From NCBI GenBank assembly GCA_965369995.1, contig CBDURO010000001.1:10260-74259 (forward strand): DNA of 64,000 bases, given 5' to 3'. The notes under the pieces are model-generated. The model had not been told where the DNA came from and ran no database searches. It worked only from the letters and a program-made list of their open reading frames with translations. A program made the translations under genes and the position numbers. Shown here piece after piece: positions 2,724-47,174 of the stretch; position 1 is the stretch's first letter; each line of letters begins with the position of its first letter. This DNA is from an uncultured bacterium (GTDB lineage Bacteria; Fidelibacterota; Marinisomatia; Marinisomatales; JAHJCW01).

Positions 2724-2835
2724 CTTGATAGGATTTTCTTTTTACAATGTGGTAATTTAAGAAAATATTTGATAATTCGGGTTCATTTTATGTGTTATTT
2801 CACGATAACAAAATGGGAAAGTTTCATTATAAAGA

Positions 2836-2985
2836 GGGATCAGGGGTCAGAGGTTGGGGAGCAGTAGCAGTAGCATCTTTAATTGATAGTCAATCGATAA
2901 TAGTAAATAGTCAATAATCAATTTCTCCGTGTCCTCTGCCTGTCCGCCGTAGCCTTGGCGTAGGAGGGTGGCAATTCAACTTTAA
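2836..2985 (+). repeat. Related repeat modules in the divergent TPR / porX-like spacer
   Basis: GGGATCAGGGGTCAGAGGTTGGGGAGCAGTAGCAGTAGCA is followed by six heptamers, AATTGAT AGTCAAT CGATAAT AGTAAAT AGTCAAT AATCAAT (2881-2922), and then a GC-rich tract with CGTAGC-type words (2923-2980). Confidence 0.45.
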
Positions 2986-5015: not shown

Positions 5016-5723
5016 ATGAAATTAATTGCGATAGAAACATCAACCGATATATGTAGCATTGCCTATATTCATAATGGAGCGTGTGAAAATATTATTGAAG
5101 AAAAAATTCCAAGGCAACATGCAGAGAAATTACCATTGTTTTACGATGAATTAGTAAAACTGACCGGATTGAGATTATCTGAAATAGATGCAATTGCTGT
5201 GTCAATTGGTCCGGGTTCTTTCACCGGATTAAGAATTGGTTTAAGTTATGCAAAAGGATTAGCTTGTGGTTACAAAAAACCGATTGTGCCGGTTCCAACA
5301 ATGCAATCTCTATTACATGGAAGTGGGATTGAAGTTGGAAATGTTGCGGTAGTAATGCGTTCGCATGGGGATAAGTATTTTGTCTGGAATCAGGTGTCAG
5401 GGATCATTGGTCAGGGTTCAGGAGGCAGTAGCAGTAAATATTCACGTATTCACGTGTTAACGTGCGAAAGTGTTAATGATTTAGGAATTGATTTGCCCAA
5501 TACCAAAATTATTTACTGGAACTGTGAAAAATTGTTTGGTGAAGTTGAAAAAATGCAAAATGTTATGCCCGTAAAACCTTCAGCTAAGTGGATAGGAGAG
5601 TTAGCCTATCAAAATTATAACAAATGGGTAGTTGAAAACCCATACAAATTGGTACCGGATTATGTATCGCCTTTTAAAATCGGAAATCTGAAATCTGAAA
5701 GAAGATTTATGAGAAGATGTTAA
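5016..5723 (+). CDS. tsaB: tRNA t6A37 biosynthesis protein TsaB (YeaZ family)
   Basis: 235 aa. N-terminal KLIAIETST and GPGSFTGLRIG motifs. The central variable region and the last ~14 codons are encoded by repeat-family-like DNA (see findings). Confidence 0.85.
   Translation: MKLIAIETSTDICSIAYIHNGACENIIEEKIPRQHAEKLPLFYDELVKLTGLRLSEIDAIAVSIGPGSFTGLRIGLSYAKGLACGYKKPIVPVPTMQSLLHGSGIEVGNVAVVMRSHGDKYFVWNQVSGIIGQGSGGSSSKYSRIHVLTCESVNDLGIDLPNTKIIYWNCEKLFGEVEKMQNVMPVKPSAKWIGELAYQNYNKWVVENPYKLVPDYVSPFKIGNLKSERRFMRRC
5388..5483 (+). repeat. Repeat-family-like module set inside the tsaB coding sequence
   Basis: ATCAGGTGTCAGGG...GCAGTAGCAGTA (5389-5436) parallels ATCAGGGGTCAGAGG...GCAGTAGCAGTA (2839-2872). 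It is followed by ATTCACGT ATTCACGT GTTAACGTG, which resembles the GTTAACGTG core. The reading frame is maintained throughout. Confidence 0.5.
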
Positions 5724-5935
5724 TGTATTCAGGTGTTAATTAGTTTAAGAATGGTTCTGTGAATGACGACTAATGACTACTTAATAATCATCAATGACAG
5801 CGCAGCGTATCCATTTTTACAACTTAACTCTTTTAACTTGGGACTTAAAACTTCTAAATAAATTTGTATATTCCCGGTCAATAAAAATTATAAAATATCA
5901 ATATTCAATAGTAAATAGACAATAGAAAATATTCA
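5682..5935 (+). repeat. Degenerate short-unit repeat modules at the tsaB 3' end and tsaB-accD spacer
   Basis: GGAAATCTGAAATCTGAAAG resembles AGAAATCAGAAATCTGAG of copy 1. AATGAC-type units lie at 5761-5800. A heptamer array CAATATT CAATAGT AAATAGA CAATAGA AAATATT lies at 5899-5933, and it shares AATAGTAAATAG with 2899-2910. Confidence 0.45.
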
Positions 5936-5942
5936 AATACAA

Positions 5943-9093: not shown

Positions 9094-9109
9094 TTTATAA
9101 AGGAAATAT

Positions 9110-12808: not shown

Positions 12809-13507
12809 ATGTTAATAAATTTGTGGTCTGATTACTCACCTAAATTTTCAGAAAAATTTATAATAGCCGGTTTGACAAATCAGTATTATCCTTTTTCATC
12901 TGAAAATGATAGAGTAGAATTCGCTAAAATATTAAAGTTAGATTATAGAAATATTGTTATTCCTGAGCAGCTCCATTCTAACAATGTGGTTTGCTGTACT
13001 AAAGCTGGAAATATTATTGGTACTGATGGAATAGTTACAAATAAGAAAGATTTAATATTATCAATTCAGGTAGCGGATTGTATTCCTATTTATCTTTTTG
13101 ATAAACAAAATTATAATATCGGCTTAATACATGCCGGGTGGCGTGGGGTAATAGCCGGTATTATTGAAAACAGTATAAAACAAATGAAAGAGTTGGATTC
13201 AAAACCAATTGATATAGAAGTTTTGCTTGGTCCATCTATTAGACAATGTTGTTTTGAAGTTGGTTCCGAGGTTGGAAAATTATTTAATGGTAAATTTAAA
13301 AAAATCGGCAAAAGTGATAGAACGCATTTAGACTTGCAAAGTGCTGTTATTGACAAATTAATAAATATGAATATTCAATATAAAAATATTATTGATATCA
13401 AAGAATGTACAAGTTGCTCAGCTCAATATCACTCCTTTCGAAGAGACGGTGACAAAGCCGGTAGAATGATTGCTATGATGGGGTGGCGCCAGAAATCAGA
13501 AATCTGA
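12809..13507 (+). CDS. pgeF: PgeF/YfiH family (DUF152) purine-nucleoside phosphorylase / peptidoglycan editing factor
   Basis: 232 aa. QLHSNNVV, VADCIPI and HAGWRG motifs typical of the family. The stop codon lies inside repeat copy 1. Confidence 0.8.
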   Translation: MLINLWSDYSPKFSEKFIIAGLTNQYYPFSSENDRVEFAKILKLDYRNIVIPEQLHSNNVVCCTKAGNIIGTDGIVTNKKDLILSIQVADCIPIYLFDKQNYNIGLIHAGWRGVIAGIIENSIKQMKELDSKPIDIEVLLGPSIRQCCFEVGSEVGKLFNGKFKKIGKSDRTHLDLQSAVIDKLINMNIQYKNIIDIKECTSCSAQYHSFRRDGDKAGRMIAMMGWRQKSEI

Positions 13508-13680
13508 GATTAGAAATTAGGGATTGAAAATATCAGTGGTAGTTGCAGGATTTTAAGAGGGAGAAAAGGTGAGAGGGAGCATTGGGGAATTGGATTAATG
13601 GAGTTAATGGGTTAACGTGTTCACAACTCACGTTTTTTCAATTAATGACAATTAATGACCACTAATAAGTACCAATAACA
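13491..13680 (+). repeat. Mosaic intergenic repeat element, copy 1 (unclassified family)
   Basis: Collinear with 39323-39480. Shared blocks are GATTAGAAATTAG, ATTGGGGAATTG, TAATGGAGTT, the exact 31-mer ATGGGTTAACGTGTTCACAACTCACGTTTTT (13607-13637 = 39417-39447) and CAATTAATGACA. The core forms the hairpin AACGTG-N9-CACGTT followed by a T-run. Confidence 0.85.
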
Positions 13681-37471: not shown

Positions 37472-38056
37472 ATGCGACAAGAATTATTACGGAAAACTAT
37501 TCATTTAAGTGCTAATTCCTTAATTCCATTAGCATATCTGTTTTTAAATATTCCAAAAATTTGGATGGCTATATTAATTGGTATTGCTTCAGTCGTGTTT
37601 GTCATGATTGATATTAGACGAACCCGGAATAGTTGGCTATCAAAGATATTTGCAAAATTATTTAACAGCATGCTTAGATCACACGAGCTTGAAGGGAAAT
37701 TAACCGGTGCAAGTTACGTTTTAATCGGGTCTTTTATTTCAATTGCAATTTTTCCGAAAGAGATTGCGGTCTTGGCATTATTATTTACCGCTATTGGCGA
37801 TACTGCCGCAGCATTATATGGCAGAAAATTTGGTAAGCTTAGAATTTGGAACAAAACATTGGAAGGTTCTATAGCCGGTTTAATTGCATGTACAATAATT
37901 GCATTATTTTTTCCTCAGATTCCGAATATTATAAAATTCAGCGGAGCATTTGCAGCAATGTTCATTGAACTGTTACCAATTAATATAGATGATAATTTGC
38001 GAATCCCACTTTTTTCGGGAATAGTTATGTATATTATATCTAATTTGATTATATGA
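37472..38056 (+). CDS. Polyprenol/diacylglycerol kinase-type CTP-dependent membrane enzyme (SEC59/DGK1/VTE5-CdsA superfamily)
   Basis: 194 aa with 5-6 TM segments. GDTAAALYGRKFGK motif. Confidence 0.55.
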   Translation: MRQELLRKTIHLSANSLIPLAYLFLNIPKIWMAILIGIASVVFVMIDIRRTRNSWLSKIFAKLFNSMLRSHELEGKLTGASYVLIGSFISIAIFPKEIAVLALLFTAIGDTAAALYGRKFGKLRIWNKTLEGSIAGLIACTIIALFFPQIPNIIKFSGAFAAMFIELLPINIDDNLRIPLFSGIVMYIISNLII

Positions 38057-39330
38057 TTGATCGACAAGGATCAAATAAGGTAGAACGCGCTATATTGGTT
38101 GGAGTTATTCATGGCAAACTTGATGAACTCATTATAGATGAACATCTTGATGAAATGGAATTGCTTGCTGATACCGCTGGAGCTGATGTTGTTGGACGTG
38201 TTACACAGCGCTTAAATAAAATTAATCCCGCCTATTTTGTTGGCAAAGGCAAAGCCGAACAAATTATGAATCAAGCCAAAGAGTTGGGGGTTTCCCTAGT
38301 CATTTTTGATGAGGACTTAAGTCCGGCTCAAACTAAGAATTTCCAATCGCTTAGCGAAAATATAAAAGTTATCGATCGCAGCGCCTTAATTTTGGACATA
38401 TTTCAAAAACATGCCAAAACTAAAGAAGCAAAAACTCAAGTAGAATTAGCGCATTTACAGTATTTATTACCGCGTCTTACAAGAATGTGGACGCATTTGG
38501 AACGGCAAATGGGAGGAATCGGAACAAGAGCAGGAGCAGGGGAAAAACAGATTGAAGTTGACCGCAGATTAATTGGACAAAGGATTGCTAAGCTGAAAAA
38601 AGAGTTAACCAAAATTGAAAAGGAAAGGAAAACACAAAGTCAGCGGCGAAAAGATCAATTTCGTGTATCATTAGTTGGTTATACAAATGCCGGTAAATCA
38701 ACATTAATGAACGCCATCACCGGGGCTAATATGTATATCCGTGATCAATTATTTGCTACCCTCGATACAACTATACGGTCGACAGTGATAGATAGTGAAC
38801 ATGAGATTTTATTAAGTGATACAGTCGGATTCATCCGCAAACTTCCACATCATTTAGTTGCAAGTTTCAGAAGTACCTTACAAGAAGTGTTGGAAGCCGA
38901 TTTAATTTTAATTGTATTGGATGTATCATCTCCACAGGTATTAGAACATCTTAATACAATTACCGAAGTATTAACAGAGCTTGGAGCTGACAAGAATACA
39001 TCGCTAATCGTATTAAACAAAATTGACACTATTGAAGAGGATGGCAGGATAGCCTATTTAAAACGAAAATTTCCAAATGGTATATTAATTTCAGCAAAAA
39101 ATCATTTGCGAATTGATAATTTGCTTGAATCAATTAAAAAAATAATTGATCGAGGATTTACTACAACCGATGTCCATTTTTCCTTTGAACAAGCTAAAGA
39201 AACAGCCGAAGCCCAGAAAGGTGTAACTATTTTAGAACGTGAGTATGATGAGAATGGTGTACATTTAAAAATTCGTGGACCTGTTAAACGTATCAATCAA
39301 ATTTTAAGAAAGCAAGGGAGTAGGGATTAG
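38053..39330 (+). CDS. hflX: GTPase HflX
   Basis: 425 aa. HflX N-domain, then G1 GYTNAGKST, G3 DTVGF and G4 NKID. The stop codon lies inside repeat copy 2. Confidence 0.95.
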   Translation: MIDRQGSNKVERAILVGVIHGKLDELIIDEHLDEMELLADTAGADVVGRVTQRLNKINPAYFVGKGKAEQIMNQAKELGVSLVIFDEDLSPAQTKNFQSLSENIKVIDRSALILDIFQKHAKTKEAKTQVELAHLQYLLPRLTRMWTHLERQMGGIGTRAGAGEKQIEVDRRLIGQRIAKLKKELTKIEKERKTQSQRRKDQFRVSLVGYTNAGKSTLMNAITGANMYIRDQLFATLDTTIRSTVIDSEHEILLSDTVGFIRKLPHHLVASFRSTLQEVLEADLILIVLDVSSPQVLEHLNTITEVLTELGADKNTSLIVLNKIDTIEEDGRIAYLKRKFPNGILISAKNHLRIDNLLESIKKIIDRGFTTTDVHFSFEQAKETAEAQKGVTILEREYDENGVHLKIRGPVKRINQILRKQGSRD

Positions 39331-39510
39331 AAATTAGTGGCAGATTGCAGGAGCTTGAAAAGGAGAAGAGGTGATGGGGAGTATTGGGGAATTGAAGTGT
39401 TAGAGTAATGGAGTTGATGGGTTAACGTGTTCACAACTCACGTTTTTACAATTAATGACAACCTAATAACTACTTAATGACTGTTATTTACTGCGTAGCG
39501 AATGACACTA
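39323..39510 (+). repeat. Mosaic intergenic repeat element, copy 2
   Basis: See copy 1. It begins at GGGATTAG, which contains the hflX TAG stop. It also shares the exact 20-mer TTTTTACAATTAATGACAAC (39443-39462) with 47087-47106. Confidence 0.85.
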
Positions 39511-39638
39511 ATTTTAAGAATGGTAGAAAGATTGAATGATTGGTTGAAAAAAAGCATATTCTACGTTTTAAATATTTGCGTTTCACACATCACTGATATT
39601 CCATCATCCATAAACCCTCAACCACCAAACATAATTTA

Positions 39639-39796
39639 TCCGTACCAGGCGTTTTTCAGGACCGCTAATGATTAACGGTGGACGCCTCCCGATTGCAGCA
39701 AACTTCCCTGACGAGAGGGCATGTTTTTTGTAAGCGAAGTACAGCTTCCTATTGATTATTACTTGTAGATCCTAAAAAAACTAATCCTGGTACGGA
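39639..39796. other. 158-bp element bounded by inverted repeats between convergent genes (candidate structured sRNA or MITE)
   Basis: Perfect 11-bp inverted repeat TCCGTACCAGG (39639-39649) / CCTGGTACGGA (39786-39796). It can be extended by GTTTTT/AAAAAC (39651-56 / 39776-81) and AGGA/TCCT (39658-61 / 39770-73). Internal hairpins are AGGCGT...ACGCCT (39647-52 / 39682-87) and ACCG-N11-CGGT. The element is visibly more GC-rich than its flanks, has no ORF, and matches no RNA family that I recognise. Confidence 0.4.
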
Positions 39797-39867
39797 AATT
39801 GTTAAAAAGCTTAACAAAAATTAGTACAAAAAGTGAGACAAATCAATTCTAATCGAATTATTCATTG

Positions 39868-41097: not shown

Positions 41098-41199
41098 AGA
41101 AAAAAAATTAGCCACGAAAAGGCATAAAAGACACAAAAATCTATAAAAAGAAATAGTCTTTTCCAGCTAACTTTAAATTATTCAGATTAATTTCTACAA

Positions 41200-41239
41200 C
41201 CCCTCTTTCCCCTCCTAATTTAGGAGGGGATGAAAGGGG
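41200..41239. promoter_or_regulatory. Two-tier GC-rich palindrome in the divergent DAACS / SSS promoter region
   Basis: CCCCT (41200-04) cttt CCCCTCCT (41209-16) aattt AGGAGGGG (41222-29) atgaa AGGGG (41235-39). The inner stem is 8 bp and perfect, and the outer stem is 5 bp. Confidence 0.5.
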
Positions 41240-41299
41240 ATGTATGAGATGATTTTTATTGGTATGGATGACTAAATTCACATTATTTATGAGGAAGCA

Positions 41300-45822: not shown

Positions 45823-46437
45823 ATGGCTAAAAAATCAATATCATTAAGTAAAGAATTTTTAAAGGGCTTATGGGATGAAAACCCTGTCCTGCGGATGCTT
45901 TTGGGACTTTGTCCAACGTTGGCTGTTACAAATTCTGCAATCAATGGATTAGCGATGGGGCTTGCTACAACCTTTGTATTGTTAAGCTCGAGCGTTATTA
46001 TATCACTTTTGCGAAAAGTGATTCCACATCAAGTAAGAATTGCCGGCTACATTGTAATTATCGCAACATTTGTAACTGTAGCGGATAGATATATGGCGGC
46101 ATTTTTACCGGAAATAAGTAAGGCATTGGGTCCTTATGTGCCATTAATTGTTGTCAACTGCGTTATATTGGGAAGGCAAGAGGCATTTGCCTCTAAAAAT
46201 GGTGTTGGGCGTTCAATAATTGATGCACTAGGGATGGGATCAGGATTTATTTTAGTACTGTTAGTATTGGGAAGTATTCGTGAATTATTAGGCTCAGCTA
46301 CTATTTTTAATTTACAGATTTTAGGTGATTGGTTTAATCCATGGATGATCATGATATTACCACCAGGAGCGTTTTTAACTTTAGGTTTATTAATTGGATT
46401 AGGTAATTGGTTGAATGAAAGGAAGGTTAAAATATGA
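45823..46437 (+). CDS. rnfE: Rnf complex subunit E
   Basis: 204 aa. NPVLRMLLGLCPTLAVT motif. Polytopic. Confidence 0.92.
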   Translation: MAKKSISLSKEFLKGLWDENPVLRMLLGLCPTLAVTNSAINGLAMGLATTFVLLSSSVIISLLRKVIPHQVRIAGYIVIIATFVTVADRYMAAFLPEISKALGPYVPLIVVNCVILGRQEAFASKNGVGRSIIDALGMGSGFILVLLVLGSIRELLGSATIFNLQILGDWFNPWMIMILPPGAFLTLGLLIGLGNWLNERKVKI

Positions 46438-47012
46438 ACCTATTACTATTATTCATCTCAGCAGCAATCGTAAATAATTTTGTTCTTACATATTTTTTAG
46501 GAATCTGCCCATTTGTTGGGGTTTCCAAAAGAGTTTCATCGGCGGTAAGTATGGGTTTGGCTGTAATGTTTGTAATGACAATAACAGCTGCAGTGACATG
46601 GTTGATTTACCATTTATTACTTGTACCATATCACATCGAAATTCTAGAATACGTATCTTTTATTTTAGTGATTGCCTCCCTTGTTCAATTAGTAGAAATG
46701 TTTATTAAGAAGGTCAGCAAACCGTTATATGATACATTAGGTATTTATTTACCGCTAATCACAACTAATTGTGCGATACTTGGGTTGGCATTATTCTCAG
46801 TTCTAAGAGATTACAGTTTCGCTGAAAGCATGGTTTTCGGTGTTGGCGCCGGTGCCGGATTTACTTTAGCATTGGTGATTATGGCAGGAATCCGTGAAGA
46901 GTTAGAACTCTCAAATATTCCTAAACCTTTTAAAGGAGCAGGAATAACAATGATAGTGGCAGGAAGTTTAGCATTGGCATTTATGGGATTTGCCGGATTG
47001 ATTTCAATGTGA
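46434..47012 (+). CDS. rnfA: Rnf complex subunit A
   Basis: 192 aa. FLGICPFVGVS motif. Polytopic. ATGA overlap with rnfE. Confidence 0.92.
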   Translation: MNLLLLFISAAIVNNFVLTYFLGICPFVGVSKRVSSAVSMGLAVMFVMTITAAVTWLIYHLLLVPYHIEILEYVSFILVIASLVQLVEMFIKKVSKPLYDTLGIYLPLITTNCAILGLALFSVLRDYSFAESMVFGVGAGAGFTLALVIMAGIREELELSNIPKPFKGAGITMIVAGSLALAFMGFAGLISM

Positions 47013-47106
47013 CCTAAGTTGATGAGTTTATGAGTATAATAGTTTATGAGTCGGACAATTGGAGTTGTGGATAAATCGAGAAGTATATTTTTACAATTAA
47101 TGACAA
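47013..47106 (+). repeat. Partial or divergent copy of the same repeat family in the rnfA-rnfB spacer
   Basis: GGAGTTGTGG resembles GGAGTTGATGG of copy 2, and the exact 20-mer TTTTTACAATTAATGACAAC is present. A different 17-nt centre replaces the hairpin core. An internal GTTTATGAGT duplication is also present. Confidence 0.6.
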
Positions 47107-47174
47107 CACAATGTTTTATTTTAAAAAAAATAGATTTTTTCAGTGTAATCTGTGAAATTTATGGTTAAACAATA

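Follow-up and report, generated by a model that had tools for sequence, protein, structure and literature searches.

Mosaic repeat cassettes probably set the ends of three housekeeping genes in a Marinimicrobia subclade

We analysed a stretch of 64,000 nt from the genome of an uncultured bacterium (assembly GCA_965369995.1, contig CBDURO010000001.1, positions 10,260 to 74,259 of the forward strand), hereafter the window, in which the 3′ ends of three housekeeping genes, tsaB, pgeF and hflX, are occupied by copies of a repeat cassette. The cassette family is specific to one subclade of Candidatus Marinimicrobia/Neomarinimicrobiota (SAR406), a group to which the window was assigned from homologues with organism names in their source records and from the one related genome that bears a name. 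The window has a G+C content of 34% and nearly all of its genes lie on the + strand; PorX, TsaE/TsaB, AccD, PgeF, UppP and HflX were identified with NCBIfam, the scores of TsaB, PgeF and HflX each exceeding the family cutoff. Sequence from the source genome (~64 kb) was compared with ~60 kb from close relatives, 650 kb having been fetched in all, and 120 homologues were collected for each of TsaB, PgeF and HflX. Scanning genome contigs for TsaB gave three useful Marinimicrobia loci, whilst the HflX scan of metagenome contigs returned, among the matches listed, mostly distant HflX loci, with L012-L015 being useful.

The cassettes are built from short tandem arrays, with units of 7, 8 and 10 nt, which follow one another in a fixed order along the strand that is sense to the upstream gene. 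They open with heptamers (GAAATCN and variants, the unit types being GAAATCN, GAAGTCN and GGGATCA), followed by a junction block of the GTGGCAG/GCAGTA type ((A)GTGGCAG..GCAG), a G-rich, C-poor tract repeating every 7-8 nt (36-40% G, 3% C), octamers (GTGTTAAC, GGGTTAAC, GTGTTCAC, AACTCACG), a T-run and TAATGAC-type units of 10-11 nt; in relatives a GC hairpin sometimes closes the cassette as a seventh module. In the hflX copy 7 GGA motifs were counted in 119 nt, vs ~2 expected from the window-wide + strand frequency. The ordered modules were found 3′ of pgeF, tsaB, hflX and ORF (open reading frame) 46434-47012, and they recur in L005, L094, L096 and L097; every copy, in these relatives as in the window, lies on the + strand. 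In L094, L096 (two cassettes), L097 and L005 the heptamers are physically joined to the other cassette modules, which refutes the possibility, allowed for by the initial annotation of this DNA, that they are unrelated low-complexity sequence. Moreover, arrays of at least three heptamers are, in the 650 kb, essentially confined to close relatives and to these sites. Tandem Repeats Finder (TRF) detects period 7 arrays at 5677-5700 and 13490-13517, and relatives have up to 9 units. As a single word TAATGAC is not enriched in the window and only its arrays are meaningful. The number of cassettes also varies: the pgeF 3′ spacer has a single one in the window and in L094, a tandem pair in L096 and two or more in L097.

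At hflX (ORF 38053-39330) the stop TAG (39328-39330) lies within GGGATTAG (39323-39330), and the initial annotation had correctly placed it in the first block of the element. The surrounding degenerate heptamer tract (39308..39335, + strand; GAAAGCA AGGGAGT AGGGATT AGAAATT) encodes the final 7 HflX codons (RKQGSRD) and the stop TAG, and has a stop within 10 codons in all three frames. It is succeeded on the same strand by the remainder of what we call copy 2, beginning with the junction block AGTGGCAGATTGCAGGAG and the G-rich, C-poor tract (39336..39418; 40% G, 3% C, with GGA/GGAG motifs), which align with copy 1 at pgeF and recur in L096, L097 and L094. Next come an exact 29-nt core, GGGTTAACGTGTTCACAACTCACGTTTTT, of octamer-like units (39419..39447; a weak 6-bp stem and then a T-run, in two window copies) and a TAATGAC-type array of 10-11 nt units at the 3′ edge of the copy (39448..39512; TRF gives 39452-39482, period 11). 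The junction CACGTTTTTACAATTAATGAC also occurs at 13629 and 47084 and in L005, L096 and L097. The rest of the lineage-specific hflX-ssrS spacer (39513..39639, + strand) is missing from sites without the cassette. HflX homologues are conserved through ...KRINQI[LIV] and variable thereafter, the commonest end being N[LS][VI]. Two relatives, L098 (protein 96% identical) and L012 (90%), have empty hflX sites with the native end ...QILNSV; DNA homology to them stops at 39307 and resumes at ~39640 (CCGTACCAGGCG), and the distance from TTTTAA to the next conserved element is 332 nt in the window vs 56 nt in L012 and 86 nt in L098. A further relative, L092 (P0135, 91% identical HflX), has the tail RNRKSEIGGRKSEI, its DNA at the same breakpoint reading (GAAATCG)3 GAGGTCG GAAATCT GAGATCT.

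At pgeF (ORF 12809-13507) the stop TGA (13505-13507) stands directly 3′ of AGAAATC AGAAATC (13491-13504), also as first reported. The heptamer array of copy 1 (13488..13526, + strand; .. AGAAATC AGAAATC TGAGATT AGAAATT AGGGATT) encodes PgeF residues 227-232 (RQKSEI) and the TGA, and the body of the copy (13527..13680, + strand) comprises the junction block, the G-rich tract, the core at 13609-13637 and TAATGAC decamers at 13639-13666. The pgeF and hflX copies share the exact 29-nt core, for which 100 shuffles gave 0 matches, and a 76-nt block at 87% identity, the alignment running from TAGGGATT onward. The two stops fall in different array units: TAGGGATT contains that of hflX in copy 2 but lies 12 nt past that of pgeF in copy 1. 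Natively, PgeF ends in ...GRMIAM[MI]GW plus 0-3 residues. L099 (79% identical PgeF) is an empty site and ends ...GWQAG (TGG CAA GCG GGT TAA); pgeF DNA homology to it stops at 13487, and the distance from pgeF to uppP is 33 nt in L099 vs 246 nt in the window. Tails of the [LRQG][KRN][ST]EI type end 15/120 PgeF homologues, KSEI tails occur in relatives at 74-95% identity, and one homologue has two tail motifs (FLRSEVGGPKSEI). A different spacer was seen at 3975-4075 of L095 (PgeF 85% identical, tail GFGRGVEN), where purine-rich GGTAGAG GAGTAGAG..AGAGGTGAGGTG is followed by the near-complement CTTCTCACTTCTCA..TCACCTCTT; this tract looks like a hairpin-forming variant that likewise overlaps the stop.

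The third gene, tsaB (ORF 5016-5723), reads through GGAAATCTGAAATCTGAAAG (5682-5701) and ends ...IGNLKSERRFMRRC, the atypical basic tail to which the initial annotation had rightly drawn attention. In its 3′ heptamer array and read-through tail (5676..5723, + strand; AAAATCG GAAATCT GAAATCT GAAAG..) the first unit consists of the native K-I-G codons, and residues 224-235 (NLKSERRFMRRC) and the stop TAA (5721-5723) lie past the native end. The downstream cassette body (5724..5800, + strand) has octamer-like GTGTTAAT.. units and a TAATGAC array, and the orthologous cassettes of L005, L097 and L096 have 7-9 heptamers, then GTGTTCAGGTGTTAACGATTCACGTTTTAACAA and a TAATG array. Most of the 120 TsaB homologues are ~216 aa long and end ...PDYVSPFKIG. 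At the empty tsaB sites of L007 and L008 the protein ends ...PFKIG (DNA AAAATTGG(A/G)TGA), and the last codon with DNA homology to the window is that of G223, at 5684. Extensions were found only in the closest relatives (GNLKSES, GNRKSEV, GSLKSEV, GSLKSEI and GSLKSEVLNH). Cassettes 3′ of tsaB are present in species with ~70% TsaB identity.

Comparison of near-identical strains shows how such tails change. The sister-strain contigs L003 and L004 have one extra 7-nt heptamer unit in tsaB and stop at the in-array TGA (GNLKSES). Over 1,688 nt the window and L003 are 92.8% identical and differ by two internal indels, one of 7 nt in the tsaB heptamer array and one of 13 nt in a separate array upstream of accD. 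The 7-nt indel turns the tail GNLKSES into GNLKSERRFMRRC. Therefore, the basic RRFMRRC tail of the window TsaB results from the loss of one 7-nt unit, which shifts the frame so that it is read to the TAA at 5721, and it is not element-encoded sequence as such, as had been supposed. Similarly, L005 and L097 are 98.5% identical over 3,060 nt and their sole internal indel is one of 14 nt (two units) in the tsaB heptamer array.

K/R-S/T-E-I or KSE[IV]-type tails were found on 5/120 TsaB, 15/120 PgeF and 1/120 HflX homologues. In a clean (GAAATCT)n array the codons preceding an in-array TGA are always AAA TCT GAA ATC, in any frame; reading to that TGA thus fixes four codons, and for this reason ...KSEI recurs on three unrelated proteins. 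Moreover, every window array has stops in all three frames within 13 codons and the ORF therefore always closes a few codons on. The arrays lie past the family-profile ends of TsaB and PgeF, heptamer DNA goes on beyond the stop codon, and whole units are gained or lost between near-identical strains, with frame shifts only at the extreme C-terminus. Among proteins clustered at 90% identity or more, TsaB and PgeF each show 5 different tails, including KSES, KSEV, GIGD, K and RRFMRRC.

A cassette-like tract also lies in frame inside tsaB, at ~codons 123-154 (5381..5476, + strand), with GGAATCA GGTGTCA GGGATCA.. heptamers followed by GCAGTAGCAGTA and then by octamers, TATTCACG twice and GTGTTAACGTG. 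It is limited to the closest relatives (P0001-P0007), in which it changes the length by +6 to +18 codons. In local alignments with cassettes it scored 42 (L096), 44 (window 2820-2930) and 30 (L097 tsaB-downstream), beating all 500 shuffles. Only the 5′ part of the tract is clearly extra, the 3′ third (IHVLTCESVNDL) being positionally homologous to native IQVLELNGINDI. AlphaFold gives TsaB a confident fold (mean predicted local distance difference test, pLDDT, 83), with values <50 only at residues 128-140 and in the tail, 226-235. By this model, cassette modules are tolerated in frame within a surface loop of TsaB that is predicted to be disordered.

Taken together, these data make it reasonably probable that a family of mosaic intergenic repeat cassettes in one Marinimicrobia subclade sets gene ends, and that the tails are by-products of repeat dynamics. 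The cassettes take up the entire 3′ spacer as far as the last codon of the upstream gene that is under functional constraint, and so replace the native stop and last 0-3 codons; in all three genes homology to the window breaks 0-1 codon from the first heptamer. Presence or absence is polymorphic at orthologous sites, with empty sites in L012 and L098 (hflX), L099 (pgeF) and L007/L008 (tsaB). The claim that the 5′ edge of the element is embedded in coding 3′ ends is borne out, all three stops falling within a heptamer tract or just past it. The comparisons suggested with that claim agree: repeat-free orthologues end differently (...PFKIG, ...GWQAG, ...QILNSV) and homology breaks at the first heptamer, after 39307 in hflX, 13487 in pgeF and 5684 in tsaB. 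The initial annotation had gone on to propose insertion into gene ends with replacement of the native termini. Replacement is upheld by the empty sites, but a clean insertion is not: in all 3 comparisons of a filled with an empty site the entire spacer differs and target-site duplication is not readable. Moreover, the cassettes are old residents of orthologous sites, given that tsaB cassettes occur at ~70% TsaB identity and KSEI tails at 74-95% PgeF identity, and they stand at the same loci in species whose proteins are 70-85% identical. The first interpretation is thus partly supported: its core stands, with the mechanism re-assigned.

Under the cassette reading, slipped-strand mispairing inside the arrays would add and remove units, whilst ectopic recombination, template switching or strand-specific mobilisation would spread cassettes between loci. 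The tails and the tsaB loop would then be neutral or near-neutral by-products of repeat dynamics at the DNA level, not selected peptides. With no stable structure and little C in its sense strand, the cassette would be transcriptionally tolerable inside operons such as pgeF-uppP and tsaB-accD, where a C-poor sense strand might avoid Rho loading. Heptamer-like native ends of tsaB and hflX could seed in-situ expansion or microhomology-mediated copying. The body of the cassette also seems to be under some constraint, which hints at a function at the DNA or RNA level.

Several observations weigh against this reading. The native 3′ ends of tsaB and hflX (AAAATTGGA; CAAATTTTAAATT) are already heptamer-like, and because they resemble heptamer units, in-situ expansion and cassette import are inseparable. 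The high conservation of the pgeF cassette argues against simple junk, and the tsaB cassette is 68% identical between the window and L097, vs 52-69% at third positions. The dispersal mechanism is inferred from sequence, with no terminal inverted repeats and unreadable target-site duplications. Lastly, the copies and orientations described are those of ~64 kb from this genome and ~60 kb from close relatives.

It is possible, though on balance unlikely, that the cassette is mainly a selected functional element in the 3′ untranslated region (UTR) of the transcript or in the intercistronic spacer, and that its overlap with stop codons is a positional side effect. Between the window and L094 identity is 95.1% for the pgeF cassette (13519-13640) and 97.3% for the remaining spacer; the corresponding values are 89.6% for pgeF and 83.8% for uppP, and 84.6% and 67.5% for their third codon positions. 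Thus cassette and spacer are 95-97% identical vs 68-85% at neighbouring third positions, and comparison of the cassette with the flanking third positions gives Fisher p = 0.003 to 2e-10. The TAATGAC array is 65% identical in the same pair, with indels. Such a role would also fit the constant orientation, sense to the upstream gene, the extreme base composition (36-40% G and 3% C, with 7 GGA per ~120 nt vs ~2 expected) and the retention of cassettes at orthologous loci. These alignments suggest sequence constraint on the cassette body, which is uneven because at greater distance the divergence of the tsaB cassette is about that of synonymous sites. The element may act as a GGA/GGAG-rich platform for proteins or ribosomes, or as an insulator with a Rho-resistant sense strand and a Rho-loading C-rich antisense strand. 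However, Rfam 15 gave no gathering-level match in the window and no credible match at E<=1 over any cassette, and conserved secondary structure was not found, the 6-bp core stem not recurring in orthologous cassettes. The divergence of the tsaB cassette also counts against a selected function, many close relatives do well without a cassette at the same sites, and module content and cassette number vary freely.

We regard as doubtful a related proposal, in which the cassette is an undescribed strand-specific, non-palindromic element that spreads between gene ends without terminal inverted repeats, is constrained as a 3′-UTR or intercistronic module and remodels the termini and loops of essential proteins. 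Such an element could spread by, for example, single-strand transposition or template switching at heptamer microhomology.

The initial annotation had instead likened the copies to small palindromic elements such as the Rickettsia palindromic elements (RPEs). That a mobile element of this type, or a MITE (miniature inverted-repeat transposable element), inserted into gene 3′ ends and replaced the termini now seems improbable. The presence/absence polymorphism with breakpoints at the element edge is as expected of such an element, and the in-frame tract in the predicted disordered loop of tsaB is like RPE insertions (PMC10969869). Moreover, three independent short-read contigs of hflX relatives (L002, L092, L093) stop inside the cassette, 3 to 81 nt past the hflX stop, which is consistent with a multi-copy cassette that breaks assemblies. 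However, we found no terminal inverted repeats at the element ends, only internal inverted matches of 10-12 nt (AAATTAGTGGCA / TGACACTAATTT). Whole-element folds (326 nt, 269 nt) are no better than shuffles (z +0.91, -0.68), and the only stem in the window copies has 6 bp and a 9-nt loop (-5 to -7 kcal/mol; core stem -5.5 kcal/mol, z -0.17) and is not conserved in orthologous cassettes. As the core and whole-element folds are at shuffle level, palindrome and terminator readings were dropped; a simple promoter/terminator scan detected no terminator in any of the three spacers, and the core fails simple terminator criteria. In addition, whole spacers differ from the empty sites, which leaves no clean insertion to be read, cassettes persist at the same loci, and differences between tails are explained by unit-wise slippage. 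What survives of the RPE analogy is therefore the outcome for the protein, not the defining structural features.

A selected KSEI peptide signal (for sorting, degradation or interaction), acquired convergently by several proteins, is very improbable and was rejected. The same tail does recur on relatives of TsaB, PgeF and HflX, but it follows directly from heptamer DNA that continues 3′ of the stop and is missing from most orthologues; tails vary freely among proteins at least 90% identical, and that of the window TsaB is predicted to be disordered (pLDDT <50). Equally remote is chance low-complexity sequence or metagenome mis-assembly: short tandem tracts are common in AT-rich genomes and TAATGAC alone is not enriched, but the exact shared core is absent from shuffles, module order is the same across loci and genomes, long heptamer arrays are confined as described above, and mis-assembly is excluded by the identical hflX-cassette junction in independent assemblies together with the identical 235-aa TsaB recorded on 5 contigs (NCBI, Logan, ENA). 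Exact copies of window proteins are also present on contigs in NCBI, ENA and Logan assemblies, the longest measuring 137 kb. An integron attC site was rejected on reasoning alone, the genes being syntenic housekeeping genes and an R′/R″ core being absent. An exact 23-nt core had no match in genome or metagenome contig collections, which themselves lack DNA of the source lineage. As a proxy for copy number we also considered an antisense cassette ORF of 35 aa, which had only 2 matches, judged unrelated, among 1.84 billion representative proteins (proteins of 1,667 aa, with 25 matched stretches, and 1,499 aa); this proxy was rejected.

The mosaic cassettes proposed here share features with several known repeats. 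BOX elements are modular (A-Bn-C), and bacterial interspersed mosaic elements (BIMEs) are mosaics with variable numbers of internal units. Cyanobacterial STRR sequences are tandem heptanucleotide arrays in intergenic DNA, with units such as CCCCAGT. The mosaic modular build with variable internal units recalls enterobacterial BIMEs and BOX, and so does the extragenic position 3′ of genes; BIMEs and BOX lie in transcribed extragenic regions after genes (PMC2817692). In contrast to REP/BIME, which are GC-rich imperfect palindromes of 20-40 nt in alternating orientation, the cassette modules keep one orientation and, in the window copies, form only a 6-bp stem. Behaviour of this kind had been thought known for only a few small palindromic elements, yet it is less rare, as ERIC, BOX/RUP and BRE repeats extend gene 3′ ends or sit in frame inside genes (PMC3184786). 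The cassettes resemble ERIC, pneumococcal BOX/RUP/SPRITE and betaproteobacterial BRE in being multi-copy intergenic repeats read in frame with neighbouring genes. However, those are palindromic or stem-loop units of fixed sequence, whereas here a chain of 7-, 8- and 10-nt arrays has no significant fold and the tails change through unit slippage.

RPEs insert in frame into unrelated housekeeping genes, the extra peptide being tolerated at the protein surface (PMC10969869). The tract at 5381-5476 in tsaB is comparable, being in frame, clade-specific, cassette-like (0/500 shuffles) and predicted disordered, and C-terminal tails are present on three genes. Unlike RPEs, which are palindromic, ~100-150 bp long and form a stable hairpin, the cassette is non-palindromic with no long inverted repeat found, belongs to a different phylum and is mostly intergenic, its copies touching last codons, with one internal case. 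It is like MITEs in its presence/absence polymorphism but unlike them in having no terminal inverted repeats. STAR elements are interspersed arrays of direct repeats that lengthen and shorten at fixed loci (PMC3532100). The cassettes share with staphylococcal STAR and cyanobacterial STRR lineage-specific, locus-specific interspersed arrays of changing length; they differ in unit sequences and phyla, in that the heptamers merely open an ordered cassette that is longer, and in that these heptamers systematically abut or overlap stop codons. As in simple-sequence contingency loci (phase variation), a repeat unit not divisible by 3 lies in an ORF and unit indels shift the frame, but there is no on/off switch, the genes are housekeeping genes and the shift is confined to residues past the functional protein.

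In the literature on Marinimicrobia intergenic repeats we found nothing relevant and no description of this cassette family, and the family and its architecture appear undescribed. The novelty is in ordered multi-period arrays, absence of palindromy and stop-in-every-frame heptamers abutting gene ends; the effect on gene ends is already known. The three genes, each with an empty-site control, provide a case, from an abundant uncultured ocean phylum, of housekeeping proteins whose exact ends are determined by the dynamics of intergenic repeats. For annotation, this means that C-terminal differences, KSEI tails and the variable TsaB loop in metagenome-assembled Marinimicrobia genomes are repeat-derived and should not be taken for functional divergence, and that cassettes break short-read assemblies at these loci. 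Moreover, the stop-in-every-frame heptamers show that a slippage-prone repeat can occupy a gene end harmlessly. Should the suggested constraint prove real, SAR406 genomes may have in these cassettes a regulatory or structural element that has gone unrecognised.

Two further members of the family lie elsewhere in the window. A related cassette upstream of porX (2836..2975, + strand) comprises GGGATCA GGGGTCA GAGGTTG heptamers, then GCAGTA hexamers, then TAGTCAAT arrays together with a GC-rich block; over 38 nt it shares 79% identity with the tract inside tsaB (score 44, 0/500 shuffles), and an orthologous array lies upstream of porX in L006. Directly 3′ of the stop of ORF 46434-47012, which it does not overlap, is a partial cassette (47013..47110, + strand) of (AGTTTATG)n octamers and then TTTTTACAATTAATGACAAC.

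The GC-rich module CTACTCCGCCGG..CCGGCGGATAC that ends cassettes in relatives forms a stem-loop of -11 to -22 kcal/mol and was located at L096:8221-8285, L097:10836-10860 and L006:1-45 (inverted), both orientations occurring; the related CGCCAAGGC lies upstream of porX at 2940-2965. Just upstream of the accD and porX starts are arrays of the AATAGTAAATAG(A/T)CAATA type (window 5895-5938 and 2880-2925; L006:85-200), which are conserved in relatives and may be promoter- or leader-associated repeats; the 13-nt indel between the window and L003 falls in the accD-upstream array. The guaA-glmS spacer is 16 nt long in the window (9094-9109) and ~220 nt in L096 (3453-3675) and L097 (6109-6331), where it is filled by (ACGAATNAA)n and TCTCAC(C/T)T arrays, the latter resembling the reverse complement of the G-rich cassette tract. 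Array invasion of spacers seems general in this clade.

Lastly, two observations concern the surroundings of hflX. The empty hflX site of L098 carries a strong terminator-like hairpin (-35 kcal/mol, z -5.3), and at 41196-41240 of the window the divergent gltP/SSF spacer contains a nested G/C hairpin (CCCCTCTTTCCCCTCCTAATTTAGGAGGGGATGAAAGGGG) that resembles the hairpin 3′ of hflX at L098:3605-3665; these may represent a second small dispersed hairpin family. Convergent with hflX, on the - strand at 39633-39801, lies a candidate 6S RNA gene (ssrS). It matches Rfam RF00013 over the full model length with 33.1 bits, below the gathering threshold of 46.4 (E = 5e-5 in a 601-nt search), and Rfam did not report its orthologues at E<=0.01. 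Its sequence is conserved 3′ of hflX in L012-L015 and L098, and RNAalifold of 4 sequences gave 48 pairs, 18 with compensatory changes. By sequence and predicted fold this is a probable 6S RNA gene, and the 6S RNA of Marinimicrobia seems poorly covered by the Rfam model.

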